Origin: Actinomycetales bacterium
GTDB taxonomy: Bacteria > Actinomycetota > Actinomycetes > Actinomycetales > JBBRBF01
Assembly: GCA_038206105.1 (NCBI GenBank)
Contig: JBBRBF010000006.1
Coordinates: 36,205 to 100,204 of the forward strand
Direction: 5' to 3'
Length of the DNA stretch: 64,000 bases
Numbering within the stretch: position 1 is the stretch's first letter; each line of letters begins with the position of its first letter. Both the position numbers and the translations under genes were made by a program. A model generated the notes under the pieces. The model made no database searches. It was not told the origin of the DNA and saw nothing but the letters and a program-made list of their open reading frames with translations. Positions 19,207 to 49,474 of this stretch are shown here, piece after piece.

Positions 19207-21672
19207 GTGCCGGTGTCGACCTACCGGCTGCAGCTGCGGGCGGAGTTCGGCTTCGACGACGCGGCCGCCGTGGTCGACCACCTCGACGCCCTCGGGGCGG
19301 GGCACGCCTACCTCTCCCCCATCCTCGCGCCGACGCCCGGCTCGGCTCACGGCTACGACGTGGTGGACCACTCCCGGCTACACCCGGACGCCGGCGGCCG
19401 GCCCGCCTTCGACCGCCTCGTCGACGCGTTGCACGCGACCGGGATGGGGGCGGTGGCCGACCTCGTCCCCAACCACATGGCCGTCCCGACGCCTGCGCAT
19501 CTGAACGAGGCGCTGTGGTCGATGCTGCGCGACGGTCCGGACTCGCCGTTCGCACCGTGGTTCGACGTCGACTGGGACGTGGCCGACCACGCCCTGCTGA
19601 TGCCGGTGCTCGGGCGCCGGATCGGCCAGGTCCTCGGCGACGGGGAGCTCACCCTCGACCTCGGCGAGGAGCACACCGAGCCCCTGCTGCGGTACTACGA
19701 CCACGTCTTCCCGGTGCGGCCGGGCACCGAGAGCCTGCCGGTGGCCGAGCTCGTCGACCGGCAGTGGTACCGCCTCGCCCACTGGCGGGTGGCGGACGAG
19801 GAGCTGAACTACCGCCGGTTCTTCGACGTCGACACCCTCGCCGCCGTCCGTGTCGAGGACCCCGACGTCTTCGACGCCACCCATGCGCTGCTGCTCGAGC
19901 TCATCGAGACCGGACGCCTCGACGGGCTCCGGATCGACCACCCCGACGGCCTGGCGGACCCGCGCGGGTACGTGCGGCGCCTGTCCGAGCGCACCCGCGG
20001 GTCCTGGGTCGTCGTGGAGAAGATCCTCGAGGGCGACGAGGAGCTCCCCGATGACTGGCCGTGCGCCGGGACCACCGGCTACGAGGCGCTGCTGCGGGTG
20101 GGTGGGCTCTTCGTCGACCCGGCCGGCGAGGCGCCGCTGTCGGCCCTGTGGCGCGAGCTGACGACCGAGGACGGCGCCCCGGACCCGGGTTTTCCGGCCG
20201 TCGTCGAGACCGCCAAGCGCGAGATGGTGACCCGGGGTCTGTACGCCGAGGTCCACCGGCTGACCGACCTGCTCGTGGAGATCTGCCACTCCGACGTCCG
20301 GCTCCGCGACCACACCCGGCGCGCGCTCGGCGAGTGCGTGGTCGAGCTGCTCGTCGCCTTCGACCGGTACCGGGCGTACGTCGTGCCGGGAGAGCCGGCG
20401 CCGCCGGCTGAGGCTGCCGTCCTCGACCACGCCGCCGGCCTGGCCCGCACGCACCTGCCCGAGGACCGCTGGGAGACCCTCGACGTCGTCCGCGAGCTGC
20501 TGCTGGGGCGCGAGGCCGGCAGCGCCGGTCGCACCTCCGAGGCGACGCGGGCCGAGCTCGTGGTCCGCTTCCAGCAGACCTGCGGCCCCGTGATGGCCAA
20601 GGGCGTCGAGGACACCTCCTTCTACCGGTGGCACCGGCTGGTCGCGCTCAACGAGGTGGGCGGCGACCCGACGCGGTTCGGCATCCCCACCGACGAGTTC
20701 CACAGCTGGTGCGCGCGGCAGGTGCAGCAGCGGCCCACCGCGATGACGACGCTGTCGACGCACGACACCAAGCGCAGCGAGGACGTGCGGGCCCGGCTGT
20801 CCGTGCTGGCCGAGGTGCCCCAGGATTGGACCGAGGCGCTGGCGACGTGGCGTGACCTGGCCGCGGGCCACCGCTCCCCGCTGCTCGACGCGGCGACGGA
20901 GTACCTCGTCTGGCAGACCCTCGTGGGCACGTGGTCGACGGGAGGCGCCGCGATGGCAGGCCCGATCGCCTCCGACCGGCTGCTGGCCTACCTGGAGAAG
21001 GCGGTCAAGGAGGCGAAGACCCACACCACGTGGACCGAGCCCGACAGCGCCTACGAGCAGGCCCTGCAGGACTTCGCGACCGGGGTCCTCGGCGACGACG
21101 CCGTGCTCGCGGCGGTGGGGGCCTTCTGCGAGCGGGTCGCCCCGGCCGCCCGCGTCGCGGTGCTCGGCCAGAAGCTCGTCCAGCTCACGATGCCCGGCGT
21201 GCCCGACGTCTACCAGGGCACCGAGATGGTCGACCTGTCGCTGGTCGACCCGGACAACCGGCGACCGGTGGACTACGGGCTGCGCCGAGCGCGGCTCGCA
21301 CGCCTCGACGCGGGCGCCCGCCCCGACGACCTGGACGACGAGAAGCTGCTCGTGACGTCGCGCGCCCTGCGGCTGCGCCGGGAGCACCCGCAGTGGTTCG
21401 TCGGGGAGGACACGACATACACCCCGCTGCCGACCTCCACGGCGCACGCGGTGGCGTTCTCCCGGGGCGACGGCTCCGGGCCCGAGGTGGTGACCTTGGC
21501 GACACGGCTCGCGAGCACCCTGGCGCGGTACGGCGGCTGGGGTGCGAGCACCGTGGCCCTGCCGGACGGCGCATGGCACGACGTGCTCTCCGGGCAGGCG
21601 GCCGCAGGCGGCACCGTGGCGCTGTCCGTCCTGCTCGACGACCTGCCGGTGGCGCTGCTCGTCCGCGACTGA
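19207..21672 (+). CDS. treY: malto-oligosyltrehalose synthase
   Basis: VPVSTYRLQLRAEFGFDDAAAVVDHLDALGAGHAYLSPIL..., DLVPNHM and RIDHPDGL. It follows glgX. Confidence 0.9.
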   Translation: MPVSTYRLQLRAEFGFDDAAAVVDHLDALGAGHAYLSPILAPTPGSAHGYDVVDHSRLHPDAGGRPAFDRLVDALHATGMGAVADLVPNHMAVPTPAHLNEALWSMLRDGPDSPFAPWFDVDWDVADHALLMPVLGRRIGQVLGDGELTLDLGEEHTEPLLRYYDHVFPVRPGTESLPVAELVDRQWYRLAHWRVADEELNYRRFFDVDTLAAVRVEDPDVFDATHALLLELIETGRLDGLRIDHPDGLADPRGYVRRLSERTRGSWVVVEKILEGDEELPDDWPCAGTTGYEALLRVGGLFVDPAGEAPLSALWRELTTEDGAPDPGFPAVVETAKREMVTRGLYAEVHRLTDLLVEICHSDVRLRDHTRRALGECVVELLVAFDRYRAYVVPGEPAPPAEAAVLDHAAGLARTHLPEDRWETLDVVRELLLGREAGSAGRTSEATRAELVVRFQQTCGPVMAKGVEDTSFYRWHRLVALNEVGGDPTRFGIPTDEFHSWCARQVQQRPTAMTTLSTHDTKRSEDVRARLSVLAEVPQDWTEALATWRDLAAGHRSPLLDAATEYLVWQTLVGTWSTGGAAMAGPIASDRLLAYLEKAVKEAKTHTTWTEPDSAYEQALQDFATGVLGDDAVLAAVGAFCERVAPAARVAVLGQKLVQLTMPGVPDVYQGTEMVDLSLVDPDNRRPVDYGLRRARLARLDAGARPDDLDDEKLLVTSRALRLRREHPQWFVGEDTTYTPLPTSTAHAVAFSRGDGSGPEVVTLATRLASTLARYGGWGASTVALPDGAWHDVLSGQAAAGGTVALSVLLDDLPVALLVRD

Positions 21673-21702
21673 CGCCCCCGCCCAGGTGCCGCCCGCGCGT
21701 CC

Positions 21703-22662
21703 TCAGGTGGTCGCGAGCAGGCGCTCCCGCTCGACGTCCACGTCGAAGTCGGCGGTCGGCCAGCGCAGGTCCATGTCGCGCAGCTCGTCGAGGAGCAGCT
21801 GCTGCACGGCCCACCGCGCGTACCACTTGCGGTCGGCCGGCACCACGTGCCACGGCGCCTCGTCCGTCGAGCACCGCTCGAGCACGTCCGCGTAGGCCGC
21901 CTGGTAGTCGTCCCAGCGCAGCCGCGCGTCGACGTCCCCCGGGTCGTACTTCCAGTGCTTGTCGGGACGGTCGAGCCGCTCGGCGAGACGCTCCGCCTGC
22001 TCCGCGGGGGAGATGTGCAGCATCACCTTCAGCACCCGGGTGCCGCGCCCGACGAGCGTGCGCTCGAGGCGGTTGATGGCGTCGTACCGTCGCCTCCAGG
22101 TCGCCGGGCGCACGAGCTCCTCGACCCGCGCGACGAGCACGTCCTCGTAGTGGGAGCGGTCGAAGACGCCCAGGTGGCCCGGCTCCGGCAGCGCCCGGCG
22201 GATCCGCCAGAGGAAGTCGTGGGAGCGCTCCTCGGCCGTCGGCGCACCGAACGAGGTGTGCGCCACGCCCTGTGGGTCGACGGCACCCACGACGTGCCTC
22301 ACGATGCCGCCCTTGCCGGAGGTGTCCATGCCCTGCACCACGAGGAGCAGGGAGCGCGACCCGCCGCTGCGGCCCTCCGCGAAGAGCTTCTCCTGGAGCG
22401 TGGACAGCTCGTCGGCGCCGGCTGCGAGAGCCGCTCTGCCCGCCGCCTTGCCGCCCTCGAAGCCCGGGGTTTCCCGCGTGCCCGTAGCGGCCAGGGTGAA
22501 CGTGTCGCCGACCGCGAGCATGTCCGCGAGCCGAGCCGCCGGCCCGCCGGAGTCGTCGACGGCGTCGGCGCCGTCCGCGACGTCCGCCTGCACCGCCGTG
22601 AGCTCCTCGGCCAGCTTCTTCGCCTTCTTCGCAGCCTTCTTGCCCTTCGCGCCCTTGCCCAT
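21703..22662 (-). CDS. ppk2: PPK2-family polyphosphate:nucleotide phosphotransferase
   Basis: ATG at 22662 with a GGAGGG RBS. Sequence features include LLLVVQGMDTSGKGGIVRHV..., FDRSHYEDVLV and KHWKYDPGD. Confidence 0.9.
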   Translation of the reverse strand: MGKGAKGKKAAKKAKKLAEELTAVQADVADGADAVDDSGGPAARLADMLAVGDTFTLAATGTRETPGFEGGKAAGRAALAAGADELSTLQEKLFAEGRSGGSRSLLLVVQGMDTSGKGGIVRHVVGAVDPQGVAHTSFGAPTAEERSHDFLWRIRRALPEPGHLGVFDRSHYEDVLVARVEELVRPATWRRRYDAINRLERTLVGRGTRVLKVMLHISPAEQAERLAERLDRPDKHWKYDPGDVDARLRWDDYQAAYADVLERCSTDEAPWHVVPADRKWYARWAVQQLLLDELRDMDLRWPTADFDVDVERERLLATT

Positions 22663-22773
22663 GCCGAGCCCTCCAGTCGTCCGTCGTGGGGTCGATCCTG
22701 GCAGCGGGCGCACACCACGGCCACGCGGAGCCGGCGATGTGACAGCGGCCGGGGCTCCCGGCAGGCTTGCGCC

Positions 22774-24522
22774 GTGCACACCTTCAGCGTCTGGTCCCCC
22801 GCCGCCGAACGCGTCGACGTCCGGCTCAGCGGCGCCGGAACCACCGAGCGAAGCGAGCCGATGCGCCGCTGCGAGGACGGCTGGTGGTCCGTCGACGTCG
22901 CCGACGCGGGACACGGCACCCGCTACGCGTACTGCGTCGACGGTGGCACGCCGCTGCCGGACCCCCGCTCGCCCTGGCAGCCGGACGACGTCCACTCGGC
23001 GTCGGCGGTCTTCGACACCGGTCGCCACGCGTGGCTGGACGCCGGGTGGGACGGCCTCGACGTGCGCGGCCGCGTCCTCTACGAGCTGCACGTCGGCACC
23101 TTCACGCCCGAGGGCACGCTCGACGCCGCGGCCGAGCGGCTGGACCACCTCGTGGGCCTCGGCGTGGAGATGGTGCAGCTGATGCCGGTGGCGGCGTTCC
23201 CCGGGCGGCACGGCTGGGGGTACGACGGCGTCGCCCTGTTCGCGGTCCACGAGCCGTACGGCGGACCTGCTGCCCTGCAACGGTTCGTGGACGCCTGCCA
23301 CGCGAAGGGCCTGGCCGTCTCGCTCGACGTCGTCTACAACCACCTCGGCCCCAGCGGCAACTACCTCGCGGCGTTCGGGCCGTACTTCACCGACCGTCAC
23401 GAGACCCCGTGGGGCCAGGCGGTCAACCTGGACGACACCGGCAGCGAGCAGGTGCGGCGGTGGGTGGTGGACAACGCGCTGCGGTGGCTGCGGGACTTCC
23501 ACGTCGACGCGCTGCGCCTCGACGCCGTCCACGCCCTCGTGGACGACTCCGAGCGCCACCTGCTCTCGCAGCTCAGCGACGAGGTCGCCGAGCTGTCGCG
23601 CGAGGTCGACAGGCCCCTCTCGCTCGTCGCGGAGTCCGACGTCAACGACCCCGTCATGGTCGAGCCGGTCGCCGACGGGGGCCTCGGGATGACCGCGCAG
23701 TGGAGCGACGACTACCACCATGCGCTGCACGCGTTCCTGACCGGCGAGCGGCAGGGGTACTACGCGGACTTCGGCGGTGCCGAGGTCCTCGCCCGCACGC
23801 TCACCCGCGTCTTCCGTCACGACGGCGGCTGGTCCTCCTTCCGCGGCAGCGACTGGGGCGCACCGGTCGACCGGCAGCGGCACGACGGTCGCGCGTTCCT
23901 CGCCTACGGCTCCAACCACGACCAGGTGGGCAACCGCGCGGTCGGGGACCGCCCGTCGGCGAGCCTGCCGCCGGGCACGCTGGCCGGTGCGGCGGCGCTG
24001 ACGCTCTGCTCGCCGTTCACCCCGATGCTCTTCATGGGCGAGGAGTGGGGCGCCTCCACGCCGTGGCAGTTCTTCACCGACCACGGCGAACCCGAGCTGG
24101 CGGAGGCGATCCGCGAGGGGCGTCGCCGCGAGTTCGCCGAGCACGGCTGGGATGCCGACCAGGTGCCCGACCCGCAGGACCCCGCGACCCGCGACGCCTC
24201 GGTGCTGCGGTGGGAGGAGACCCACGACGACCCGCACCGCCGGCTGCTGGCCTGGTACACCCGTCTCGTCGCGCTGCGACACCGCGAGCCCGACCTGCAC
24301 TCCGGCGACCTGACGGCCGTCTCGGCCCGGCACGCCGACGACGGGTCCTGGTTCTGCCTGTCCCGTGGCGCGCTGCGCGTGGCGCTGAACCTGTCCGCGT
24401 CGCCGCTGCCGGTACCCGTCGACGGGACGCCCGGCGAGGTCATGGCCGCGTGGGACCGTGCCGAGACGGGTCCCGGCACCGTCATCCTGCCGCCCCGCTC
24501 GGTCGCGCTCGTGCGCGTCTGA
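22774..24522 (+). CDS. treZ: malto-oligosyltrehalose trehalohydrolase
   Basis: VHTFSVWSPAAERVDV..., YELHVGTFTPEGT, GYDGV, DVVYNHLGP, LRLDAVH and SNHDQVGNR. Confidence 0.9.
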   Translation: MHTFSVWSPAAERVDVRLSGAGTTERSEPMRRCEDGWWSVDVADAGHGTRYAYCVDGGTPLPDPRSPWQPDDVHSASAVFDTGRHAWLDAGWDGLDVRGRVLYELHVGTFTPEGTLDAAAERLDHLVGLGVEMVQLMPVAAFPGRHGWGYDGVALFAVHEPYGGPAALQRFVDACHAKGLAVSLDVVYNHLGPSGNYLAAFGPYFTDRHETPWGQAVNLDDTGSEQVRRWVVDNALRWLRDFHVDALRLDAVHALVDDSERHLLSQLSDEVAELSREVDRPLSLVAESDVNDPVMVEPVADGGLGMTAQWSDDYHHALHAFLTGERQGYYADFGGAEVLARTLTRVFRHDGGWSSFRGSDWGAPVDRQRHDGRAFLAYGSNHDQVGNRAVGDRPSASLPPGTLAGAAALTLCSPFTPMLFMGEEWGASTPWQFFTDHGEPELAEAIREGRRREFAEHGWDADQVPDPQDPATRDASVLRWEETHDDPHRRLLAWYTRLVALRHREPDLHSGDLTAVSARHADDGSWFCLSRGALRVALNLSASPLPVPVDGTPGEVMAAWDRAETGPGTVILPPRSVALVRV

Positions 24523-24549
24523 CGCCGCCGCTCCGGCGGGGACACCGGG

Positions 24550-25188
24550 TCAGCGCACTGGGCTGCGCGAGGTTCCCGCGTCACCGGCCGCCGCGTACAG
24601 CCGCTCGACCGTGACCGGGGCGAGGCACTCGGGCCGTGTGCTCAGGAACGAGCGCAGCCGGTCGCGGTGGACGACCGTCACCCGGGCAGAGGCCGGTTCG
24701 TGGACGGAGGCCGGGTCGCGCGCGTCGCCGAGGGCGCCGCCGCTGCCGATCACGACGACGACGCGCGCCTCGAGTGCGACGCCGGCCGTCTCGGACAGCT
24801 GGTCGCCGAGGCGCTCCGCGGGCGTCGCGCCGGAGTCGCAGACCAGGGCGAACACCCCGGCGGGTCCGACGACGAGGTGGTCGACGACGGTCCCGTCGCC
24901 GAGGGTCACGGCCGGACGGCACCGCCAGCGCGGGTCGTGGCGGACGAGGCGGTCCAGCTCCCGCCCGACCCGGTGCGCGAGCACGGCGCGAGCACGGCGT
25001 GCGAGCCACCCCCGGCCGGGCCGCGGTGCCGGCCGCGACGGCCGGGTGTGCCGGGCCGGCTCGGTCCACTGGGGAGGCAGGGTCGCGGACGTCGGCTGCG
25101 TGGCCTGGGCTGTCGTGTCGGGCACTGTCCCGACGTCGGCGCCAGGCGGCTCCTGCCTGAGGGCGGCTCCCCCGATCGGCCGACCCAC
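24550..25188 (-). CDS. NERD (nuclease-related) domain protein
   Basis: VDHLVVGPAGVFALVCDSG core, preceded by RVGRELDRL. The N-terminal ~60 aa look disordered. Confidence 0.6.
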   Translation of the reverse strand: MGRPIGGAALRQEPPGADVGTVPDTTAQATQPTSATLPPQWTEPARHTRPSRPAPRPGRGWLARRARAVLAHRVGRELDRLVRHDPRWRCRPAVTLGDGTVVDHLVVGPAGVFALVCDSGATPAERLGDQLSETAGVALEARVVVVIGSGGALGDARDPASVHEPASARVTVVHRDRLRSFLSTRPECLAPVTVERLYAAAGDAGTSRSPVR

Positions 25189-25255
25189 CCCACGGAGCGG
25201 CCCACCCCCGCGCGGTGATCATGCACGACGGGTCCGCTGGGCGTACCCGACGCGC

Positions 25256-26578
25256 ATGATCACCGCGGGGGGCGGGGCTACGGTGACGGCCGTGGGTGCT
25301 GGGGGCGGGGCCGGGGGCGGGGCCGGGGGCGGGGGCGGGGCCGGGGGAGGGGCCGGGGGAGGGGCCGGGGCCGGGGCCACCGTGGCGGTCGTGCTCTCGG
25401 GTGCGGCGGCGCGCGGGGCGTTCCAGGCCGGTGCGCTCGCCGAGCTCGTGCCTGCGCTGCAGCGCGACGGTCTACGCCCGACGATCTGGGTCGGCACCAG
25501 CGCGGGCAGCATCAACGCGGTGCTGTGGGCCGCCGCGGCGCACCGCGAGGCCGGCGCCGCAGCGGACGGTGTCCTGGACGTGTGGCGGTCCTTCGACGGC
25601 GACGACGTCTACGCACCGCTGCTGCCGTTCTCGCTGGCGAGGGTTGCCGCCCGGTACGCCGCGGGGGCCGTGCTGGGCGTCGGGCCCGGCACGACCAGTC
25701 TGCTGGACACCACGCCGCTGCGGCGGACGGCGAACCGGCTGTTCCCGACGGACCGGCTCGCCGCGAACGTCGCGGGCGGCGCGGTCTCGGCGCTCGGGGT
25801 GGTGGCGACCAGGATGCCGCACTCCGACGGGGCCGGCGGAGGACGCAGCGTGCTGTTCCTGCACGAGCACTCCCGTTCGGGCTGGACCGGCGACCCCGCG
25901 CGCGCTCTCGACGTCGTCCGCGGCCCGGTGCGCCCGGACCACGTGCTGGCCTCCGCCGCGGTGCCGGTCGCGTTCGCACCGGTCCGCGTGACCCGTGACG
26001 GCGGCGAGGACGGCTGGTACCTCGACGGCGGGGTCCGGCTCAACACCCCGCTGTTGCCGGCGCTGCGCCTCGGGGCCACGCACGTCGTGATCGTCTCCGC
26101 CGGGGCACCGCCCGCCGCCGCCACGCCTGTCGCCGACGCGGGACCGACGCCGGACGTCGCCGACGCCGCGGCCCAGGTGCTGCACGCGGCGCTGTCGGAT
26201 CGCACCGGCGAGGACCTGCTGACGCTGCGGCGCACCAACCGGCTCGTCGCCCAGGCCGTCGCCGCCGGGCAGCCCGACCTGCTGCGCAGCGCGGGCGGCC
26301 GCCCGTACCGGCACGTCGACGCGCTGGCCGTCACTCCGCCCGCCGGGGCCCTCGGCCGGATCGCGTCCGCCGTCCTCGCCCGGCGTACCCGCGGCCTGCG
26401 ACGCCTCACCGACCTGGACGCCTGGCTGATCGGGCAGGGGGTGCGGGGGGCCGGCGACGGTGCCGGCAGGCGCGACCTGCTGAGCTACCTGCTCTTCGAC
26501 CCGGAGTACTTCGACGCCGCTATCGACCTGGGCCGGGAGGCCGCGCGGGCCGCGCTGCAGCGCGGCTGGGCGGACTGA
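25256..26578 (+). CDS. patatin-like phospholipase
   Basis: VVLSGAAARGAFQAG (oxyanion region), GTSAGS (GxSxG nucleophile) and YLDGGV (catalytic Asp). The N-terminal Gly/Ala tract is encoded by the 12-bp repeat. Confidence 0.8.
   Translation: MITAGGGATVTAVGAGGGAGGGAGGGGGAGGGAGGGAGAGATVAVVLSGAAARGAFQAGALAELVPALQRDGLRPTIWVGTSAGSINAVLWAAAAHREAGAAADGVLDVWRSFDGDDVYAPLLPFSLARVAARYAAGAVLGVGPGTTSLLDTTPLRRTANRLFPTDRLAANVAGGAVSALGVVATRMPHSDGAGGGRSVLFLHEHSRSGWTGDPARALDVVRGPVRPDHVLASAAVPVAFAPVRVTRDGGEDGWYLDGGVRLNTPLLPALRLGATHVVIVSAGAPPAAATPVADAGPTPDVADAAAQVLHAALSDRTGEDLLTLRRTNRLVAQAVAAGQPDLLRSAGGRPYRHVDALAVTPPAGALGRIASAVLARRTRGLRRLTDLDAWLIGQGVRGAGDGAGRRDLLSYLLFDPEYFDAAIDLGREAARAALQRGWAD
25297..25378 (+). 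repeat. imperfect 12-bp tandem repeat (GGGGCCGGGGGC-like, about 6.5 copies) made of closely spaced G4-G5 runs
   Basis: gctgggggcggggccgggggcggggccgggggcgggggcggggccgggggaggggccgggggaggggccggggccggggcc. It is in frame and encodes AGGGAGGGAGGGGGAGGGAGGGAGAGA. Confidence 0.9.
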
Positions 26579-26653
26579 GCCGGTGGCACCGACGTGGCGC
26601 CGGGACGCCGCCGCGTGGCAGAGTCGCTCTCCCCGAGCGAAGGAGGACCCGTC

Positions 26654-27109
26654 GTGGGCGAGGTCGCGTACGTCTCCGAGGTCACGGTCGAGCGGCTGGG
26701 TGGGCCGTTGCGCGCCGCGCACCTGCCCGGAGAGCAGGAGCCGACCCTGTACGGGATGCACGGTGCGGTCGCCGAGCACTACGGCGCACGGCCCGGCGAC
26801 TTCCCCGAGCACGCCAGCACGATCGACCACCTCGTCGGCGCCGCCCTCGGTTGACTCACCGGCACGTTCGCCGGCGCCCTCGCGGCGCGGCGGATCGACC
26901 CCACCGGTCTGGTGGGGCACGCGCGCGGTGAGGTCGAGCTCGAGGGGAAGGTCCTCGTGGTGAAGCGGATCGCGGTGACCTACACCGGCCTGACGGTCGG
27001 ACCGGACCAGCGGGAGCGGGTCGACCGCGTGCTCGCCGTGCACGCCGACGGCTGCCCCGTCGCCCGCAGCATCCGGGGGGCCATCGACATCACGACCGCC
27101 CTGGGCTGA
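26654..27109 (+). pseudogene. OsmC/Ohr-family peroxiredoxin-like gene with in-frame TGA (26852..26854) at the first catalytic Cys position; either a nonsense pseudogene or a Sec-decoded CDS
   Basis: GTG at 26654 lies 7 nt after AGGAGG. The ORFs 26594..26854 and 26912..27109 share one frame: ...TIDHLVGAALG-TGA-LTGTFAGALAARRIDP...VHADGCPVARSIRGAIDITTALG. The second conserved Cys (CPV) is intact. Confidence 0.55.
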
Positions 27110-27150
27110 CCCGCCTGGCCGCGCTGACGCGGTGGGCTGCGGCGGGGCCG

Positions 27151-27352
27151 TCAGGTCCGGTCGGCCCCACCCGGGTGCTCCACCGAGGCGTCCGTCCCGG
27201 GGTAGACCAGGCCCTCGTGCCCGTCGTCGTGGCGGACCAGGTACGGCGGCTCGCCGTCGTCGCCGCGGACCTCGATGATCTCGGCGGTCTCGTCGGGCGA
27301 ACCCACGTTCCTCCCGTGGACGTGCAGACGGTCGCCCTTGGTGGCGCGCATG
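27151..27352 (-). CDS. DUF1918 domain protein
   Basis: MRATKGDRLHVHGRNVGSPDETAEIIEVRGDDGEPPYLVRHDDGHEGLVYPG. The family is recalled from memory. Confidence 0.7.
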
Positions 27353-27514
27353 GCAGGTCCTCTCGTCGTCCCGCTCAGCAGCCTGCACCCTGAGGGCCTC
27401 TCGCGGAAGGGGTCGGACGCCCCGCACGGGGCTGGGCGGTCGGCGCAGCGTCGCCTAGCATGCGGCGCGCGCCACCGGCCGCGGCGGCGCGGTCCGCCGA
27501 GCCGAGAGGCGTCC

Positions 27515-27847
27515 ATGATCTTCATCACCGCCAAGTTCCGCGTCCTGCCCGAGCACGCCGAGCGCTGGCCGGAGATGGCCGGCGAGTTCACGCGCGCCGT
27601 GCGCGCCGAGCCCGGCTGCCTCTGGTTCGACTGGTCCCGCAGCCTCGACGACCCCACCGAGTACGTGCTCGTCGAGGCCTTCCGCGACCAGGACGCCGCC
27701 GTCGCCCACGTGCAGGCGGACCACTTCGCCAAGGCCCAGCAGGACCTGCCGCCGCACCTCGCAGAGACCCCCCGGGTGGTCAACGCGATCGTGGACCAGG
27801 ACGACTGGTCCGAGCTCGGCGAGATGGCCGTCACCCGCTGCGACTGA
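27515..27847 (+). CDS. antibiotic-biosynthesis-monooxygenase (ABM) family protein
   Basis: MIFITAKFRVLPEHAERW...EPGCLWFDWSRS...EYVLVEAFRDQDAAVAHVQADHF. Confidence 0.8.
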   Translation: MIFITAKFRVLPEHAERWPEMAGEFTRAVRAEPGCLWFDWSRSLDDPTEYVLVEAFRDQDAAVAHVQADHFAKAQQDLPPHLAETPRVVNAIVDQDDWSELGEMAVTRCD

Positions 27848-27856
27848 CCGGTCGCC

Positions 27857-28957
27857 TCAGCCGCCCACGTCGCGCCGCTGCGGCGGCGGGACGCGGGCGA
27901 GCGCGTCGGCCTGCGACAGCCCCGTCACCTGGAGCAGGTCGACCACCGCCGAGCGCACCTGCGCGAGGACGACGTCCGCCGACAGATCTCCCCTGGGCAC
28001 CCGCGCCGACAGCTCCGCGACGTCCCGCAGCCGGCGAGCCGCCGGGGCGAGGTCCTCCCCCGCGACGACCTCACCGGCCAGCAGCGACACAGCATCGGCG
28101 AGCTCGGCCACGAGGGTGGTGACCGGCGCGGACACCGTTTCTCCGACGCGGGTCGCGGCCACGACCCGGCGCGCGAGCACGCGCACGTTGCGCGCCGCCC
28201 GGTCCAGCGGCTGCACGGTCGCCGACAGCGACCTCAGGCCCTCGCCGTGCCGCCGCCGGAACGGCGACACCCGCACGACGTCGAGCCCCTCGGTCGCGGC
28301 CTGCCGCAGCGCGGCGATCGACGCGTCGGTCCCGCGAGCCCGGTCCAGCGCCAGCTCCGCGGCGGCCTGGTCCCCGCCGCGGGCCGCGTCGGCGCAGCAT
28401 CCCAGCAGGTCGGCGAGATCGCGCAGCACCCCGCCGGCGATCTCACGGGGTCGCCGCAACGGCTGTCGGGGCGCGACCGTGGCCACGGCGACCGCCACCG
28501 CTCCCCCGACGACGGCGTCGAGCCAGCGGCTGAGGCCCGCGTCGGCCTGCGGCAGCAGCGTCGTCACGATCACCGCCTGCACCCCGGACTGGGTGATGAG
28601 CACCGTCCCCGCGTCGAGCAGCACCGCCAGGCTCATCGCGATCCCGACCACGAGCGCGATCTGCCACCACCCGGTGCCGAGCAGCGTCACGAGCAGGTCG
28701 CCGACGGCCACCCCGATCGCCACGCCGACGACCACCTCGACGGCGCGCCGCGTCCGCTGGCCGTAGGCCACGCCGAGTGCGACGACCGCAGCGACGGGGG
28801 CGAAGAAGGGGCGGGTGTGCCCGAGCAGCTCGGTCGCGACGAGCCACGCCAGCGCCGCCGCGACGGCGCACTGCGCCACCTGGAACCGGGCGCGACGCCA
28901 CCGCGCCAGCCGTAGCCCCAGTCGACGCCGGGCCCGTGTGCGGTCCCAGCGCCTCAT
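27857..28957 (-). CDS. FUSC/aromatic-acid-exporter family membrane protein
   Basis: ARFQVAQCAVAAALAWLVATELLGHTRPFFAPVAAVVAL, 5 TM segments and a cytoplasmic helical C-terminus. The start overlaps the zapE stop by 4 nt. Confidence 0.7.
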   Translation of the reverse strand: MRRWDRTRARRRLGLRLARWRRARFQVAQCAVAAALAWLVATELLGHTRPFFAPVAAVVALGVAYGQRTRRAVEVVVGVAIGVAVGDLLVTLLGTGWWQIALVVGIAMSLAVLLDAGTVLITQSGVQAVIVTTLLPQADAGLSRWLDAVVGGAVAVAVATVAPRQPLRRPREIAGGVLRDLADLLGCCADAARGGDQAAAELALDRARGTDASIAALRQAATEGLDVVRVSPFRRRHGEGLRSLSATVQPLDRAARNVRVLARRVVAATRVGETVSAPVTTLVAELADAVSLLAGEVVAGEDLAPAARRLRDVAELSARVPRGDLSADVVLAQVRSAVVDLLQVTGLSQADALARVPPPQRRDVGG

Positions 28958-30042
28958 CCCGGCCCGCTGACCGCGGAGGTGCCTTCGCGTGCCAGCGCCG
29001 TCAGCCGCGAGACGGCACGCCGGTACTTCTTGCGGTAGCCGCCGGCGAGCATCTCGTCGGTGAACACACGGTCGAGCTGCTCGCCCGATGTCCGCAGCGG
29101 CAGCTCGCGGTCGTACACGCGGTCGGCGAGCACGACGAGCCGCAACGCGACGTTCTGGTCCGGCACGGGCCGGACCCCGGTCCAGTGCACCGACGTCACC
29201 CCGTCGAGCATCGCGCCGTACCGGCTGGGGTGCACGGTCGCCAGGTGCTCGAGCAGGTCGGAGAAGTCGTCGAGGACGGCGCCGTCCCCCCACTGCCGGG
29301 CCGCGGCGACCACGTCGGTGTCGTCCCAGGGCACGGGCGGCTCGGGCAGGCCCCGGTGCCGGTAGTCGTCACCGTCGATGCGGACGACGTCGAAGTGGCC
29401 GGCGACCGCCTGGATCTCCCGCAGGAAGTCGTCCGCGCCGAACCGCCCCTCCCCCAACGCGTCCGGCAGCGTGTTCGACGTCGCCGCGAGGCGCACGCCG
29501 GCGTCCGCGAGCTCGCGCAGCAGTCGAGCCATCAGCACGGTGTCGCCGGGGTCGTCGAGCTCGAACTCGTCGACGCACACGAGACGCATCGCGGTCAGGG
29601 CCTGCACCGCCTCGCGGAAGCCCAGCGCACCGGCGAGGTTCGTGTACTCCACGAACGTGCCGAACGCGCGCGGCGCGGGCACGGCGTGCCACAGCGAGGC
29701 GAGCAGGTGGGTCTTGCCGACTCCGAAACCACCGTCGAGGTAGAGCCCGGTCGGGCCGCCGGGCTGCGGTGCCCCCGCCACGAGCCGGCGCAGGCCGGCG
29801 CGCAGGCCCCCGGCGGCGCCGGGCGGCGGCGCGGACCGCTCGGCGAGCGCCTGCAGGGCGGTCACCGCCTCCGCCTGGCTGGGACGGTCCGGGTCGGGGC
29901 GGTAGGTGTCGAACGACTCCGCCGCGAACCGCGGCGGCGGCACGAGGTCCTCGACGAGCCGCTGCGGGTCGGTCCGGGGGGTGCGGCCGACGAGCGAGGC
30001 CGGCGCACCGCCGGGTCGCTGCTCCTCGCCCGGCCGGTCCAC
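28954..30042 (-). CDS. zapE: cell-division protein ZapE (AFG1-like ATPase)
   Basis: Walker A in YLDGGFGVGKTHLL and Walker B in LVCVDEFELDD, followed by ATSN. Start is GTG at 30042. Confidence 0.85.
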   Translation of the reverse strand: MDRPGEEQRPGGAPASLVGRTPRTDPQRLVEDLVPPPRFAAESFDTYRPDPDRPSQAEAVTALQALAERSAPPPGAAGGLRAGLRRLVAGAPQPGGPTGLYLDGGFGVGKTHLLASLWHAVPAPRAFGTFVEYTNLAGALGFREAVQALTAMRLVCVDEFELDDPGDTVLMARLLRELADAGVRLAATSNTLPDALGEGRFGADDFLREIQAVAGHFDVVRIDGDDYRHRGLPEPPVPWDDTDVVAAARQWGDGAVLDDFSDLLEHLATVHPSRYGAMLDGVTSVHWTGVRPVPDQNVALRLVVLADRVYDRELPLRTSGEQLDRVFTDEMLAGGYRKKYRRAVSRLTALAREGTSAVSGPG

Positions 30043-30114
30043 GCGGCGAAGGGTAGACGGGGCCGCGGCTCGTGGCCGGGGCAGGATGGGCTCACCCCCG
30101 GGCGCAGGACGACG

Positions 30115-31077
30115 ATGCTGCGGTTCCGGGAGACGCGGGAGGGCGGACGGCGGGTGGTCGGCAGCGGAGGCGGTGACGGCAGCGGAGCGGAGCCCCTGAG
30201 CCGGTACCTGCTGGCACAGGCGCGGGCCCTGGAGGACGCCAGCGACGCGGCGCGACACGGCGACCCCGAGGGGGTCCACGACGTCCGTGTGGCGGCCCGG
30301 CGCGCCCGCAGCGCCCTGGCGGCGCACCGCCGGCTGCTGCCCCGCGGTCGCCGCGACGAGGCGCGTGCGCTCGAGCGGGACCTGCGCGAGCACGCCGCGG
30401 GGCTGTCGGCGCGCCGGGACGCCGAGGCCGCCGGGGAGCTCGTCGTCGGGTGGGCGGACGCCCGGGCCTGGCCCGCCGACCGAACCCGCCGCGTGCTGGC
30501 GACCCTCACCGAACGGTCGACGGCCGCCGAGCAGGCCGACGGGGCGGTCGCAGACCCCGACCGCCTCCTGAGCGCGCGGTCCGCCGCCGCGCTCGCCGGG
30601 CGGGTCTTCGCCGCGGGGGACGCCGTCGACGGCTGCGCAGAGGCCGGTCTGCGACGCGGGGTGCGGCGGTCCTGGCGCCGGGTCCAGGCACGGTGGGACG
30701 TCGCCCGCGCCCGGCTCGTGGGACGCCCTGACGGAGACGACCGGGCGACCGGCGACGACGAGCGGGCCGTCGCGCTGCACGAGGTCCGCAAGGCGGCCAA
30801 GCGGCTGCGGTACGCCGCCGAGGTGGCCGCCGAGGGCGACCGCGGCGCCGACGCGGTCGCGGCCGCGGCCCGCGGGGTGCAACGGCTGCTGGGTGACCGG
30901 CAGGACGCCGTCGTCGTCGCCGGCCTGCTCGCCGCACCCGCTGCGGACGAGACCACGGACGCGGCCGTGGACCACGCCCGCCGGCTGGCCGACGCCGTCG
31001 TGGACCATGCCGACGTTGGGGTGCTCGCGGCCGTCGACGACCTCCGCGGCGCCGTGCGACGGTGGACCCCGGGCTGA
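30115..31077 (+). CDS. CHAD domain protein
   Basis: Repeated CHAD helices: HDVRVAARRARSAL and HEVRKAAKRLRYAAE. Confidence 0.75.
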   Translation: MLRFRETREGGRRVVGSGGGDGSGAEPLSRYLLAQARALEDASDAARHGDPEGVHDVRVAARRARSALAAHRRLLPRGRRDEARALERDLREHAAGLSARRDAEAAGELVVGWADARAWPADRTRRVLATLTERSTAAEQADGAVADPDRLLSARSAAALAGRVFAAGDAVDGCAEAGLRRGVRRSWRRVQARWDVARARLVGRPDGDDRATGDDERAVALHEVRKAAKRLRYAAEVAAEGDRGADAVAAAARGVQRLLGDRQDAVVVAGLLAAPAADETTDAAVDHARRLADAVVDHADVGVLAAVDDLRGAVRRWTPG

Positions 31078-31139
31078 GCGTCGGACCCTCGGAGGTGGGA
31101 TGATCGTAGGCGCCGTCGACAACCCCCAGGAGGACCTTC

Positions 31140-32039
31140 GTGGCCGTCGCACCCGACACCGACCCGACGTTCGCCGAGTACGCCGACCCGGAGCGGCTCG
31201 TCAGCACGCAGTGGGTCGCGGACCACCTCGGCGAGGACGGACTCGTCGTCGTCGAGTCCGACGAGGACGTGCTGCTGTACGAGACCGGTCACGTCCCCGG
31301 CGCCGTCAAGGTCGACTGGCACACCGAGCTCAACGACCCCGTGACCCGCGACTACGTGGACGGGGAGGCGTTCGCGGCCCTGATGCGCGCCAAGGGCATC
31401 TCCCGCGACGACACGGTGGTCATCTACGGCGACAAGAACAACTGGTGGGCCGCCTACGCGATGTGGGTGTTCGCCCTGTTCGACCACCCCGACGTCCGCC
31501 TGATGGATGGCGGCCGCGCGAAGTGGCACGCCGAGGGCCGCGACCTCGCCACGGCGGCCCCGGAGCGCGCAGCGAGCGAGTACCCGGTCGTCGAGCGCCG
31601 CGACGACGAGATCCGGGCGTTCAAGGACGACGCGCTCGCCCACCTCGGCAAGCCGATGATCGACGTCCGGTCGCCGCAGGAGTACACCGGTGAGCGGACC
31701 CACATGCCGGACTACCCCGAGGAGGGCGCCCTGCGCGGCGGGCACATCCCCGGGGCCCAGTCGGTGCCGTGGGCGCGAGCCGCCGCCGAGGACGGCACCT
31801 TCAAGCGGCGCGCCGACCTGGAGGCCATCTACGAGCAGGAGAAGGGCCTGTCGAGCGACGACGACGTGATCGCCTACTGCCGCATCGGCGAGCGGTCGAG
31901 CCACACCTGGTTCGTGCTGCACCACCTGCTCGGCTACCCCCGGGTCCGCAACTACGACGGGTCGTGGACCGAGTGGGGCAACGCGGTGCGCGTCCCGATC
32001 GTCAAGGGCGAGCAGCCCGGCGAGGTGCCGCAACGATGA
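31140..32039 (+). CDS. thiosulfate/3-mercaptopyruvate sulfurtransferase (tandem rhodanese)
   Basis: Two rhodanese domains with the active-site loop [16 protein letters not shown] at 31140 follows a CAGGAGGA RBS. Confidence 0.9.
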
Positions 32040-32503
32040 GCGGGACCGCGACGGAGGCCGCCGCGGGGCTGCCGGAGGCGCTCGCGGAGATCGTCACGGA
32101 CTTCCACGACCTCGGTACCGCGGACCGGCTCCAGCTGCTGCTCGACTTCAGCCGCGAGCTGCCAGGGCTGCCCGAGCGGTACGCCGAGCACCCCGAGCTG
32201 ATGGAGCCCGTGCCGGAGTGCCAGTCCCCGATCTTCCTCGTCACCGAGGTCGAGGGGGCCGGGGAGCAGGCTGCGGTGCGGCTGCACTTCTCCGCACCGC
32301 CGGAGGCCCCCACCACCCGCGGCTTCGCCGGCATCCTCCACGAGGGGCTCGACGGGCTGAGCGCGCGCGCGGTGCTCGACGTGCCCAACGACGTCTCCCA
32401 CCGCCTCGGCCTCGACGAGGCCGTCAGCCCGCTGCGGCTGCGCGGGATGGCGGGGATGCTGGCGCGGATCAAGCGCCAGGTCCGCGAGAAGGCCGGGGTG
32501 TGA
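32036..32503 (+). CDS. sufE: SufE-family sulfur acceptor
   Basis: [14 protein letters not shown]...[11 protein letters not shown] (acceptor Cys)...[10 protein letters not shown]. The start shares an ATGA overlap with the rhodanese gene. Confidence 0.85.
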
Positions 32504-33294
32504 GCGACCCGCCGCCGCTGGAGGTGCTGCTGCCGGCCGAGCGCGCCGGCACCGTGCTCGCCCCCGAGCCGGCCGAGACCGAGCTCGCCGCCGTGCTCGC
32601 CCACCCGAGCGGCGACAGGGGTCAGCCGTTCGTACGCGCGAACATGGTGGCCGGGGTCGACGGCGGCACGTGGGACGGCGCCGGCCGCACCGGCGGGCTG
32701 GGTACGCCCGCGGACCTGCGCGTGCTGGTGCTGCTGCGGTCCCTGGCGGACGCCGTCCTGGTCGGGGCCGGCACGATCCGCGCCGAGGGGTACGGCCCAC
32801 TGCGCACCCGCCCGGCGTTCGCGGCGCGGCGGCGGGCAGCCGACCAGGACTCCGCCCCCCGGCTGGCGGTCGTCACCCGGACCTGCGACGTGCCGGCGGA
32901 CAGAGGGCTCCTGGACGCCGGCGCCGCCACCCTGGTCGTGACGTGCGAGGCGGCGGGCTCCGACGCGGTGACGCGGGTGCGCTCCCGCCTCGGCGCGGAC
33001 GCCGTCCTCGTCGCCGGGGACGACGACGTCGACCTGGGCGCCGCACTCGATGCCCTCGCCGCGCTGGGCCTGGGCCGGGTGCTCACCGAAGGCGGGCCGA
33101 GGCTGCTCGCGGCGCTCGTCGCCGCGGGGCGGCTCGACGAGCTCTGCCTGACCACGGCGCCCGCGCTGCTCGGCGGGGACGCCGCCCGCGTGCTCGACGG
33201 CCCCGCCGTCGGCGGCACCTCCGGTGTGCCGGTGCGCCTGCTGAGCCTGCTGCACCACGAGGGCACCCTGCTCGCCCGGTGGTCGACCCGGTGA
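32500..33294 (+). CDS. RibD C-terminal-domain / dihydrofolate-reductase-like family protein
   Basis: VRANMVAGVDGG...DLRVLVLLRSLADAVLVGAGTIRAEGY...LTEGGPRLLAALVAAGRLDELCLT. The start shares a GTGA overlap with the upstream gene. Confidence 0.7.
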   Translation: MSDPPPLEVLLPAERAGTVLAPEPAETELAAVLAHPSGDRGQPFVRANMVAGVDGGTWDGAGRTGGLGTPADLRVLVLLRSLADAVLVGAGTIRAEGYGPLRTRPAFAARRRAADQDSAPRLAVVTRTCDVPADRGLLDAGAATLVVTCEAAGSDAVTRVRSRLGADAVLVAGDDDVDLGAALDALAALGLGRVLTEGGPRLLAALVAAGRLDELCLTTAPALLGGDAARVLDGPAVGGTSGVPVRLLSLLHHEGTLLARWSTR

Positions 33295-34364
33295 GCACCG
33301 AGCCCGGCGACGAGGCGGTCGGTCACGACGAGCTCCGGCTGGCGTCGCGGAACCACGCGATGCCGCTGGAGGCCCTCGCACTCGACGTCACCCCGGTGGG
33401 CCTGCACTTCGTGATGTGCCACTACGACATCCCGCTGCTGGACACCCGGCCGTGGCGCCTCGACGTCGTCGGGCTCGTCGAGATGCCGCGCTCGCTGTCC
33501 GTCGACGACCTGCGTGCCCTGCCGTCGGTGACCGCGACGGTGACGATGGAGTGCGCGGGCAACGGCCGGTCGCTGCTGCGGCCGCGGCCGGTAGGCCAGC
33601 CGTGGGTGGACGGCGGGGTCGGCACCGCGCAGTGGACCGGCACCCCGCTCGCGGACGTCCTGGCAGCCGCCGGCGTGCAGGAGGGTGCCGTGGACGTCGT
33701 CTTCTCCGGTGCCGACCACGGCACCGAGCACGGCAGCGAGCAGGACTACGCGCGCTCCCTGTCGGTGGCGGACGCGACGTCGGACGACGTGCTGCTGGCG
33801 TGGGCGATGAACGGGGCGCCCCTGGCGCCGCAGCACGGCGCGCCGCTGCGGCTCGTGGTCCCCGGCTGGTACGGCATGGCGTCGGTGAAGTGGCTGCGGC
33901 GCATCGAGATCCGGGACACCACCTTCACCGGCTTCCACCAGACCCGCGCCTACCGGGTGCGGGAGTCCGGCCGCGACGTCGGCGTCCCGGTGCGCCGGAT
34001 CCGGCCGCGGGCGCTGCTGCGCCCGCCGGGCTTCCCCGACTACCTGTCGCGCATCCGCGTCGTCGAGGTCGGCGACCACGAGCTCACCGGCCGGGCCTGG
34101 TGCGGCAGCGCCCCGGTCACACGGGTCGAGGTCAGCACCGACGACGGCGACACCTGGGCCGACGCGGAGGTGTCCGCCGCGCCCGGGTCGGCGGCCTGGC
34201 AGGCGTGGAGATGGCGCTGGGCGGCACGCCGCCCCGGACGGGCGATGCTGCGCGCCCGCGCGCACGCCGCCGACGGGTCCGTGCAGCCCGACGACCCCCG
34301 CTGGAACGTGCACGGCGTCGTCAACAACGCCACACAGCGGGTCGAGGTGCTCGTGCGCGCCTGA
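33291..34364 (+). CDS. sulfite-oxidase-like molybdopterin oxidoreductase
   Basis: VTMECAGNGR (Moco Cys), HGAPLRLVVPGWYGMASVKWLRRIE, and a C-terminal dimerisation/Ig-like domain. The start shares a GTGA overlap with the upstream gene. Confidence 0.85.
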   Translation: MSTEPGDEAVGHDELRLASRNHAMPLEALALDVTPVGLHFVMCHYDIPLLDTRPWRLDVVGLVEMPRSLSVDDLRALPSVTATVTMECAGNGRSLLRPRPVGQPWVDGGVGTAQWTGTPLADVLAAAGVQEGAVDVVFSGADHGTEHGSEQDYARSLSVADATSDDVLLAWAMNGAPLAPQHGAPLRLVVPGWYGMASVKWLRRIEIRDTTFTGFHQTRAYRVRESGRDVGVPVRRIRPRALLRPPGFPDYLSRIRVVEVGDHELTGRAWCGSAPVTRVEVSTDDGDTWADAEVSAAPGSAAWQAWRWRWAARRPGRAMLRARAHAADGSVQPDDPRWNVHGVVNNATQRVEVLVRA

Positions 34365-44855: not shown

Positions 44856-45268
44856 GCGAGCACACCACAGCGGTCTCCCGGGCCGCGGCGACGGCGGACG
44901 CCGTCGCCGCGGCCGCACGGGCCTGCCCCGGCGTCGTCGACCTCAGCGTCGGCGGCTTCCGGTCGGTCACGACCCTCCTGCCCGGACGCCGGGTGGACGG
45001 CGTGCGCGTCGACGACGACCGGCTCGAGGTCGGTGTCGTGGTCGCTGCCGGGAGGCCGGTCCGTGAGGTCGCGGAGCGGGTCCGCGCGGCCGTCGCGTCC
45101 GTCGCCGGCGGTCTGCCGGTCGACGTCCACGTCGCCGACGTCGCGGTGCCCGGTGAGGACGACGAGTCGGGCGAGGACGAGGAGCCGGACGCGAGCGGCC
45201 GGCCGGGCGGAACCGTCGAGGATGCCGACCCGCAGACCCAGGCCGAAGCCGGTCTGGGCCACGCCTGA
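44852..45268 (+). CDS. Asp23-like protein (divergent)
   Basis: GTGA overlap with the upstream gene. Sequence: AVAAAARACPGVVDL...RVDDDRLEVGVVVAAGRPVREVAERVRAAV...VDVHVADV. Confidence 0.6.
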   Translation: MSEHTTAVSRAAATADAVAAAARACPGVVDLSVGGFRSVTTLLPGRRVDGVRVDDDRLEVGVVVAAGRPVREVAERVRAAVASVAGGLPVDVHVADVAVPGEDDESGEDEEPDASGRPGGTVEDADPQTQAEAGLGHA

Positions 45269-49449: not shown

Positions 49450-49474
49450 GCGGCGCTGTCACGAGGAGCGCCGC
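49450..49474. terminator. hairpin between the convergent sulfatase pseudogene and the polymerase-domain gene
   Basis: GCGGCGCT-gtcacgagg-AGCGCCGC, an 8-bp stem beginning at the last base of the sulfatase stop codon (49447..49449). Confidence 0.35.

Follow-up and report, generated by a model that had tools for sequence, protein, structure and literature searches.

A 64,000-nt stretch of contig JBBRBF010000006.1 (GenBank assembly GCA_038206105.1, an Actinomycetales bacterium), hereafter called the window, carries at positions 26654–27109 of its forward strand a gene of the OsmC/Ohr type whose reading frame is interrupted by a TGA at codon 67. Our analysis indicates that this TGA is, with high probability, a selenocysteine (Sec) codon in an intact gene, and that the gene is a functional selenoprotein gene; that Sec is actually inserted in the source organism we infer from sequence comparison. 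An earlier note on the window had proposed the gene as a selenoprotein candidate, and the proposal is now sustained by a stop codon conserved at this site, by homologues that have TGC in its place, by orthologues with TAG in a family that decodes UAG as Sec, and by a covarying RNA structure just downstream.

Gene structure and protein fold

The features of the gene, all on the forward (+) strand, are the following.

26640–26646, + strand: ribosome-binding site AAGGAGG, 7 nt 5′ of the GTG start (direct reading)
26654–27109, + strand: complete coding sequence of a candidate 151-residue selenoprotein of OsmC/Ohr fold (translation, Pfam, orthologue alignment, dN/dS and orthologue model)
26654, + strand: GTG start codon (direct reading)
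26852–26854, + strand: UGA, the candidate codon for Sec at residue 67, the site of the first catalytic (peroxidatic) cysteine (orthologue codons and alignment with 1ukk)
27053–27055, + strand: TGC codon for the resolving (second) catalytic cysteine, Cys134 (no variation in the family alignments; alignment with 1ukk)
27107–27109, + strand: terminal TGA (direct reading)

As the earlier note had stated, and as can be read directly from the sequence, a single frame preceded by a good ribosome-binding site runs through the whole region, and the TGA at 26852–26854, in the context ...HLVGAALG*LTGTFAGALAARRI, is its sole interruption. If this codon is read as Sec, the peptide around residue 67 becomes ...GAALG-U-LTGTFAGALAAR. 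The HADGC motif, which holds Cys134, is intact. The region 26654–27109 is one intact gene of 151 codons and not two open reading frames (ORFs).

The read-through product, with Cys in place of the stop, scores 39.6 bits against the Pfam OsmC profile PF02566 (cut-off 27.5, E = 7.5e-10), in agreement with the complete OsmC/Ohr fold claimed before. Likewise, the claim that the TGA occupies the first catalytic Cys while the second is preserved is borne out by HMMER, in whose alignment U67 and C134 fall on the two cysteines of Thermus thermophilus OsmC (1ukk). The structural model that we used is that of a Cys-containing orthologue, P0001, and not of the window protein. It was obtained with AlphaFold (AF2) from a 20-sequence alignment and has a mean predicted local distance difference test score (pLDDT) of 94.3. 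Its top matches in the PDB are OsmC/Ohr proteins (1ukk, 6ebg, 6eb4, 1nye, 1usp and others), with a Foldseek probability of 1.0 and template modelling (TM) scores of 0.65–0.77. As in OsmC/Ohr, the model places the Sec/Cys position on a long helix and the second Cys in the pair of helices that follows it. The first Cys of the family we take to be the peroxidatic one (Cys59 in OsmC, Cys60/61 in Ohr); the C60S and C61S mutant entries among the PDB matches agree with this assignment.

A different way to account for the internal stop would be that the gene is split, with polypeptides of 66 and ~84 residues translated separately and assembling into the OsmC fold. Indeed, the NCBI entries for Blastococcus and Geodermatophilus include C-terminal pieces of 84 residues under the name 'OsmC family protein', and an ATG directly follows the TGA in four loci (L019, L020, L036 and L042). 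However, in the window and in most loci the codon after the stop is CTC or CTG without a ribosome-binding site, the first in-frame start of the window after TGA-67 is the GTG at 26912, 19 codons further on, and the stop interrupts the gene by one codon only, the frame being kept in every locus. The probability of separate translation is, in our opinion, negligible.

The annotation of this family in databases deserves a comment. Of the 150 nearest cluster representatives at 50% identity, about four-fifths are short C-terminal fragments, many of which start just after the Sec site, as would be expected if selenoproteins are called with the standard code. Other entries (P0003–P0020, metagenome gene calls of the Joint Genome Institute, JGI) are full-length 'uncharacterized OsmC-like protein' sequences with Trp at the Sec position (GGWLLGTF). 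Presumably, the genetic code applied in these calls assigns Trp to TGA, and the Sec family is thus hidden as Trp-containing proteins. In the literature and databases that we searched, the family is not annotated as a selenoprotein. Reading the codon as Sec restores a gene which, in well over a hundred genomes and metagenomes, is left split or truncated by standard annotation, and the signature G-U-[LM]-x-G-T followed by a downstream hairpin could serve for its re-annotation.

Conservation of the in-frame stop codon

A scan covering one genome per prokaryotic species yielded 48 related loci, 46 of them full-length and two fragmentary (L047 and L048). At the Sec column the full-length genomic orthologues have TGA (29), TAG (14) or TGC (3), so that a stop codon occupies exactly this column in 43 of 46 cases, while Cys is found in three Thermoleophilia loci. 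The scan of metagenomes added 80 loci (TGA 75, TAG 1, TGC 2 and two unresolved), with a stop in 76 of the 78 resolved ones. Once duplicates are removed, 108 distinct stop-codon loci are left, 93 with TGA and 15 with TAG, which span at least seven phyla. Their hosts include, within Actinomycetota, Blastococcus, Geodermatophilus, Modestobacter, Ornithinicoccus, Rubrobacter and Ilumatobacter, and elsewhere Gemmatimonadota, Acidobacteriota, Myxococcota (including Anaeromyxobacter), Geobacterales, Limnocylindrales and a Pseudomonadota metagenome-assembled genome (MAG).

The homologues that lack the stop have mostly Cys at this column. TGC is present in L044–L046, L050, L051, L132 and L134, and Cys in the close homologues P0001 (65% identical), P0002 and P0027; among 28 full-length cluster representatives the residue is Cys in 24, Ser in two, Ala in one and garbled in one. 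The UGA of the window is therefore found in frame exactly where homologues have Cys. Thus, the orthologue alignment suggested in the earlier note reveals a stop at the Sec column accompanied by conserved downstream hairpins, and TGC in the remaining homologues.

These data also bear on the other possibility raised in that note, namely that a recent TGC- or TGT-to-TGA mutation has inactivated an ordinary Cys-type OsmC gene. Such an event needs only one substitution in the case of TGC, and the window contains at least one other apparent pseudogene (a sulfatase-like ORF with a TAG at 48246 and a frame change, see below). On the other hand, the stop is ancestral at the Sec column, being conserved in the 108 distinct loci across phyla and in every close relative, while the nearest Cys forms are only ~65% identical; furthermore, a nonsense mutant would have no need of the conserved RNA structure downstream. 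We reject the nonsense mutation as extremely improbable.

The immediate surroundings of the codon are also conserved. The base following the recoded stop (+4) is C in 103 of the 108 loci, and a C at this position constitutes a weak termination context. The Gly codon preceding the stop (in the region 26849–26855 of the window) is GGT in 69 of the 108 loci, compared with only 14% of the Gly codons elsewhere in these genes. Selection thus seems to favour a U directly before the recoded codon and a C directly after it. RNAalifold also draws a 5-bp hairpin (UCGGU/ACCGG) at 26847–26862, conserved in the actinobacterial clade, with the UGA/UAG plus CUC in its loop; this small hairpin could be the cause of the GGU preference, or it may be a mere by-product of the conserved G-U-L-T-G codons.

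The two fragmentary loci, both from Mycobacteriales MAGs, are decayed remnants. L047 (3715–3985) has kept the TAG and hairpin B (see below), but its N-terminal half is gone and its frame is shifted, while L048 (5001–5105) is a 35-residue piece. They illustrate how real pseudogenisation of this OsmC-type Sec gene looks.

The codon switches from TGA to TAG in Geodermatophilaceae

Each of the 14 loci that come from named genomes of Blastococcus, Geodermatophilus and Modestobacter, or from MAGs related to them, has TAG and not TGA. The TAG loci (L002–L004, L006, L008–L017 and L056, of which L015 and L016 are from Modestobacter) have an unchanged downstream element and form one clade in a neighbour-joining tree, where the window copy is the nearest TGA-bearing lineage. 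Geodermatophilaceae have been described, in the relevant passage of PMC5330540 (citing Mukai et al. 2016), as possessing a tRNA(Sec) with the anticodon CUA and selenoprotein genes with the matching codon. The selenoproteins named in that passage are formate dehydrogenases, UGSC-motif proteins and AhpC, with no mention there of an OsmC-type protein, and the taxa named in it are the family Geodermatophilaceae and Blastococcus saxobsidens DD2 only.

Since the stop at the Sec column switches along with the anticodon of tRNA(Sec), it follows that tRNA(Sec) reads this column. A two-base change that preserves a stop and at the same time follows the anticodon of tRNA(Sec) would be difficult to account for if this tRNA did not decode the column. 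The UGA/UAG orthologue pair thus provides an unusually clean in-silico proof of tRNA(Sec) decoding, which is rare for a predicted selenoprotein.

This switch is also what helps to judge whether the UGA might be recoded to an amino acid other than Sec, either Cys, through a tRNA(Sec)-like tRNA(Cys) and SelB, or Trp or Cys through near-cognate read-through. In other bacteria, tRNA(Sec)-like tRNAs are known to insert Cys at UGA with the help of SelB, and the JGI calls do show W at the codon, although this is an artefact of the genetic code chosen. Yet the codon tracks the anticodon of tRNA(Sec) in Geodermatophilaceae, the lineages that use Cys have a plain TGC and lack hairpin B, and it would be unparsimonious to keep a costly recoding signal just for Cys. 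We consider insertion of another amino acid very unlikely.

A two-hairpin RNA element downstream of the UGA

The consensus fold computed with RNAalifold on 22 sequences of the actinobacterial clade, later widened to 29, consists of two adjacent hairpins, A and B, separated by one unpaired A. We regard them as the candidate Sec insertion sequence (SECIS). The corresponding positions in the window are listed below, together with a competing pairing (hairpin 1).

26859–26874, + strand: hairpin 1, CCGGC-ACGUUC-GCCGG, an alternative pairing that begins 4 nt after the TGA
26865–26897, + strand: candidate SECIS hairpin A, 33 nt, starting 11 nt after the UGA (RNAalifold consensus, 13 pairs, two bulges)
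26879–26883, + strand: apical loop CUCGC of hairpin A, 24 nt after the UGA
26899–26917, + strand: candidate SECIS hairpin B, CCCCACC-GGUCU-GGUGGGG, with the candidate SelB-binding loop of the actinobacterial clade (7 pairs, consensus fold)
26906–26910, + strand: loop GGUCU of hairpin B, 51 nt after the UGA, on a stem that starts 44 nt after it

The pairings of hairpin 1 and of the GGUCU hairpin had been recognized correctly in the earlier note, while their positions require correction: hairpin 1 begins 4 nt and not 6 nt after the TGA, and the GGUCU hairpin lies at 26899–26917, 10 nt downstream of the 26889–26907 given there. The usual distance between UGA and apical loop in bacteria is ~16–37 nt (bSECISearch). 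The note rightly placed the GGUCU hairpin beyond this range, although its figure of ~41 nt is too short for both the stem (44 nt) and the loop (51 nt).

In a window with 75% G+C, a hairpin as such is a poor guide. Its + strand contains 124 perfect 7-bp hairpins, and for this reason a lone hairpin means little. Moreover, the 85-nt stretch that was folded does no better than its shuffles (z = −0.40). The 53-nt element at 26865–26917 folds at −34.1 kcal/mol (z = −2.2), and the minimum free energy of hairpin A is −19.9 kcal/mol. The significance of the RNA element comes from comparative data and not from the single sequence.

In the 29 sequences, 98.4% of the cells of hairpins A and B taken together are standard pairs (98% for A, 99% for B), and compensatory changes are found in four pairs, two per hairpin. 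None of 500 column shuffles reached the observed pairing values, and sliding the partners by 1–3 columns lowered the pairing to 26–56%. The GGUCU loop of hairpin B is invariant (29/29 sequences), while that of hairpin A differs among members of the actinobacterial clade (CUCGC, CUGGC, CUGAG, CUCAA, CUCAC). As for the window itself, it carries its own variant of hairpin A, with C at 26875 and G at 26887, in which the bulge is shifted and the helix is kept through re-pairing.

An independent view is given by synonymous-codon diversity, which along the gene has one clear minimum, directly 3′ of the Sec codon. In the actinobacterial clade, to which the window copy belongs, diversity is low over codons 69–92, and the deepest minimum of the gene (0.07–0.15, as against 0.3–0.45 elsewhere) coincides with the codons R-R-I-D-P-T-G-L-V of hairpin B. 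The GGUCU hairpin singled out in the earlier note is therefore the most constrained element in this clade. In the non-actinobacterial clade the drop, from ~0.45–0.5 to 0.23, occurs at the position of hairpin A, over GGCGCGC-UGGAG-GCGCGCC. This 7-bp hairpin has its loop ~26 nt after the UGA, which is the canonical position of a bacterial SECIS within the 16–37 nt range, and a nearly invariant G at a synonymous site of the loop. It shows no compensatory change and is conserved by sequence; what speaks for it is synonymous-site conservation only.

Hairpin B is missing from the Cys homologues L050 and L051, where the peptide at this place is IDPDGLVA and ISPKGIRT, respectively, instead of IDPTGLVG. 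Since the hairpin and the peptide are missing together, the conserved DPTGLVG appears to reflect a constraint at the level of the RNA rather than of the protein.

Hairpin 1 and hairpin A compete with each other because they use the same CCGG: in the consensus fold, nucleotides 26870–26874, the 3′ arm of hairpin 1, serve as the 5′ arm of hairpin A. The mRNA located 5–9 nt 3′ of the codon being decoded is inside the ribosomal mRNA channel. The 5′ arm of hairpin 1, 5–9 nt after the UGA, would thus be within the ribosome during decoding, and hairpin 1 is probably not the functional element. The likeliest contact for SelB would instead be the GGUCU of hairpin B, a pentamer that, as stated in the earlier note, is shared with the Escherichia coli fdhF SECIS, where GGTCT is found in the apical region. 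The distance between UGA and GGUCU differs between the window and fdhF by 51 − 18 = 33 nt, which is exactly the length of hairpin A. With moderate confidence, and by analogy with fdhF, the most likely arrangement is one in which hairpin A acts as a side arm and brings hairpin B to about the fdhF spacing (~18 nt). Two adjacent hairpins with a displaced GGUCU loop would be an undescribed SECIS layout, and they offer a testable case of how strict the UGA-to-SECIS spacing is outside E. coli.

In a scan of the window and of all loci for further selenoprotein genes, two other hairpins with a GGUCU loop were considered and discarded. The one at 45104–45120 of the window (GCCGGC-GGTCT-GCCGGT, in an ORF by Asp23-like genes) is not a Sec signal, the TGA 40 nt upstream being out of frame, and the one at 8163 of L020 has no in-frame TGA.

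Selection on the gene, host and genomic context

The family alignment is free of frame changes from the N- to the C-terminus across phyla, and the protein is conserved on both sides of the TGA. When the window copy is compared with its closest relatives, the ratio of nonsynonymous to synonymous substitution rates (dN/dS) is ~0.17–0.30 upstream and 0.21–0.32 downstream of the TGA; both halves of the gene are, judging from these ratios, under similar purifying selection. The window copy has retained the invariant residues of the family, has neither a frameshift nor an extra stop, and its branch in the neighbour-joining tree is of ordinary length.

The nearest named relatives of the threonyl-tRNA synthetase encoded in the window (~80% identity) are Thalassiella, Quadrisphaera and Kineococcus (Kineosporiales), and not Geodermatophilales, which places the host, as far as this protein can tell, near Kineosporiaceae as a Kineosporiales-like actinomycete. 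Homology between loci ends at the borders of the ~450–550-bp gene. For instance, blastn of the Blastococcus saxobsidens locus (L004) against all other loci, including those of other Blastococcus, found no flanking homology, and a block ~2 kb upstream is common to some Geodermatophilus loci only; tblastx synteny among the Geodermatophilaceae flanks was dominated by high-GC noise. The variable genomic contexts of the gene suggest frequent relocation or transfer.

Several observations weigh against a Sec codon in a functional gene. Neither the 64 kb of the window nor any of the flanks retrieved contained a tRNA-Sec, selA, selB or selD; when E. coli SelA, SelB and SelD were run by tblastn against the window and every locus, a weak match of a GTPase domain to an EF-G-like gene was the only result. 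There is no named Kineosporiales member among the 48 orthologous genomic loci, and the region 20000–34000 of the window has no flanking homology with any locus, the gene itself being all that is shared. As for the RNA element, no G is conserved in the hairpin A loop across the actinobacterial clade, where some members lack a G altogether, and the invariant GGUCU loop, at 51 nt from the UGA, is beyond the range usually quoted. Furthermore, no Rfam SECIS was matched, either over the whole window at gathering thresholds or over 26800–27000 in E-value mode, the only hits being tRNAs and chance matches. Finally, the peroxidase activity is deduced from the fold and the catalytic positions only.

The lack of flanking homology leaves a small chance that the gene has arrived horizontally in a host unable to decode Sec. 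The window copy would then be a fossil selenoprotein gene, acquired by transfer or stranded by a recent loss of the Sec machinery of the host, in which the UGA terminates translation and the gene, no longer functional, has not yet decayed. The lack of sel genes and tRNA-Sec in the window, the absence of synteny with any other locus and of a named Kineosporiales genome among the orthologous loci are what such a history would leave behind. The copy itself tells otherwise: frame and invariant residues are preserved, its branch is not elongated, and dN/dS is as low downstream of the TGA as upstream; the SECIS is intact, and the change to C 26875 and G 26887 re-pairs hairpin A rather than breaking it. 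The truly decayed L047, with its lost N-terminus and shifted frame, differs from it in these respects. A fossil gene is thus unlikely, and we favour a Sec codon that is still in use.

Elsewhere in the window we noticed a sulfatase-like ORF at ~48261–49450 (+ strand) with a CCPSRASLMTGR formylglycine motif. An in-frame TAG at 48246 is preceded by coding-like sequence, and near 49300 the C-terminal part of the ORF resumes in a different frame; the ORF is probably a pseudogene. This TAG is, besides the Sec codon, the only in-frame stop of the window with coding-like sequence around it.

Proposed decoding and catalytic mechanism

According to our reading of the gene, UGA-67 would not lead to termination and would be decoded by Sec-tRNA(Sec) delivered by SelB. 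The factor would be recruited by the mRNA element directly downstream, which in the actinobacterial lineage would consist of hairpins A and B. Hairpin A, 11 nt after the UGA, is at the canonical position of a bacterial SECIS; folded out as a side arm, it would allow the GGUCU loop of hairpin B to contact SelB.

The OsmC/Ohr family comprises thiol peroxidases that work with two cysteines, one peroxidatic and the other resolving, and whose reduction is lipoyl-dependent (PMC8945050). The product of the window gene is most likely a hydroperoxide reductase, considering its alignment with the family and the model of its Cys orthologue. As best we can infer, it would act as a seleno-peroxidase: Sec67 would attack the peroxide and be converted to a selenenic acid, Cys134 would resolve this to a selenenylsulfide, which a thiol or lipoyl donor would then reduce to regenerate the enzyme. 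A Sec-type OsmC/Ohr peroxidase would be directly comparable with its natural Cys paralogues.

Comparison with known systems

The two-Cys reductases of the OsmC/Ohr family (E. coli 1nye/1qwi, Thermus 1ukk, and the Xylella and Chromobacterium Ohr) share with the window protein the fold, as seen in the Cys orthologue, the two catalytic positions ~67 residues apart in a long helix and a second helix, and the combination of a reactive first Cys position with a resolving second Cys. The window protein differs from them in having Sec instead of the first Cys. Furthermore, it is distinct from OsmC proper (TIGR03562), with a score of 19.8 bits against a cut-off of 85.8, and it is also below the cut-off of the SACOL1771 subfamily.

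Like the SECIS of E. coli fdhF, the element of the window has a stem-loop from ~11 nt after the UGA and the GGUCU pentamer in an apical loop. Unlike fdhF, which has one hairpin, the window has two adjacent ones, and its GGUCU is 51 nt from the UGA, whereas in fdhF the distance is 18 nt (in MG1655 the pentamer starts 19 nt after the UGA of codon 140). As for the UAG-encoded Sec of Geodermatophilaceae, the orthologues of Blastococcus, Geodermatophilus and Modestobacter fit this system, with a TAG that matches the CUA anticodon and with the same SECIS, while the window copy is outside Geodermatophilaceae and retains the ancestral TGA. We tentatively raise the possibility, which at present we hold to be rather doubtful, that all of this amounts to a selenoprotein family not recognized in databases, which extends the UAG-decoded selenoproteins of Geodermatophilaceae by an enzyme of the OsmC type and has an undescribed two-hairpin SECIS with GGUCU at 51 nt, or ~18 nt once hairpin A folds out.

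OsmC-like selenoproteins are themselves not without precedent. They were described in 2005 from the Sargasso Sea as proteins of the COG1765/YhfA type with a UxxT motif (PMC1088965), and they have been carried in later reviews (PMC9312934, PMC13188914). The earlier note had mentioned such proteins from metagenomes, and correctly so, but the window gene does not belong to that subfamily: against NF041052, 'OsmC-related (seleno)protein', the window protein reaches 12.8 bits with a cut-off of 95. The two groups have in common the OsmC superfamily fold, a UGA-encoded Sec in place of a Cys of the homologues, and a predicted SECIS just downstream. They differ in the motif (U-L-T-G-T in the window protein, UxxT in the marine ones), in the N-terminal extension YVSEVRVER...HG.VAEHYG of the window protein, and in their hosts, which are marine plankton in one case and soil Actinomycetota, Myxococcota and Acidobacteriota in the other. 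By these sequence comparisons, the window family is a separate lineage of the OsmC superfamily, in which Sec would have been acquired at the equivalent catalytic position.

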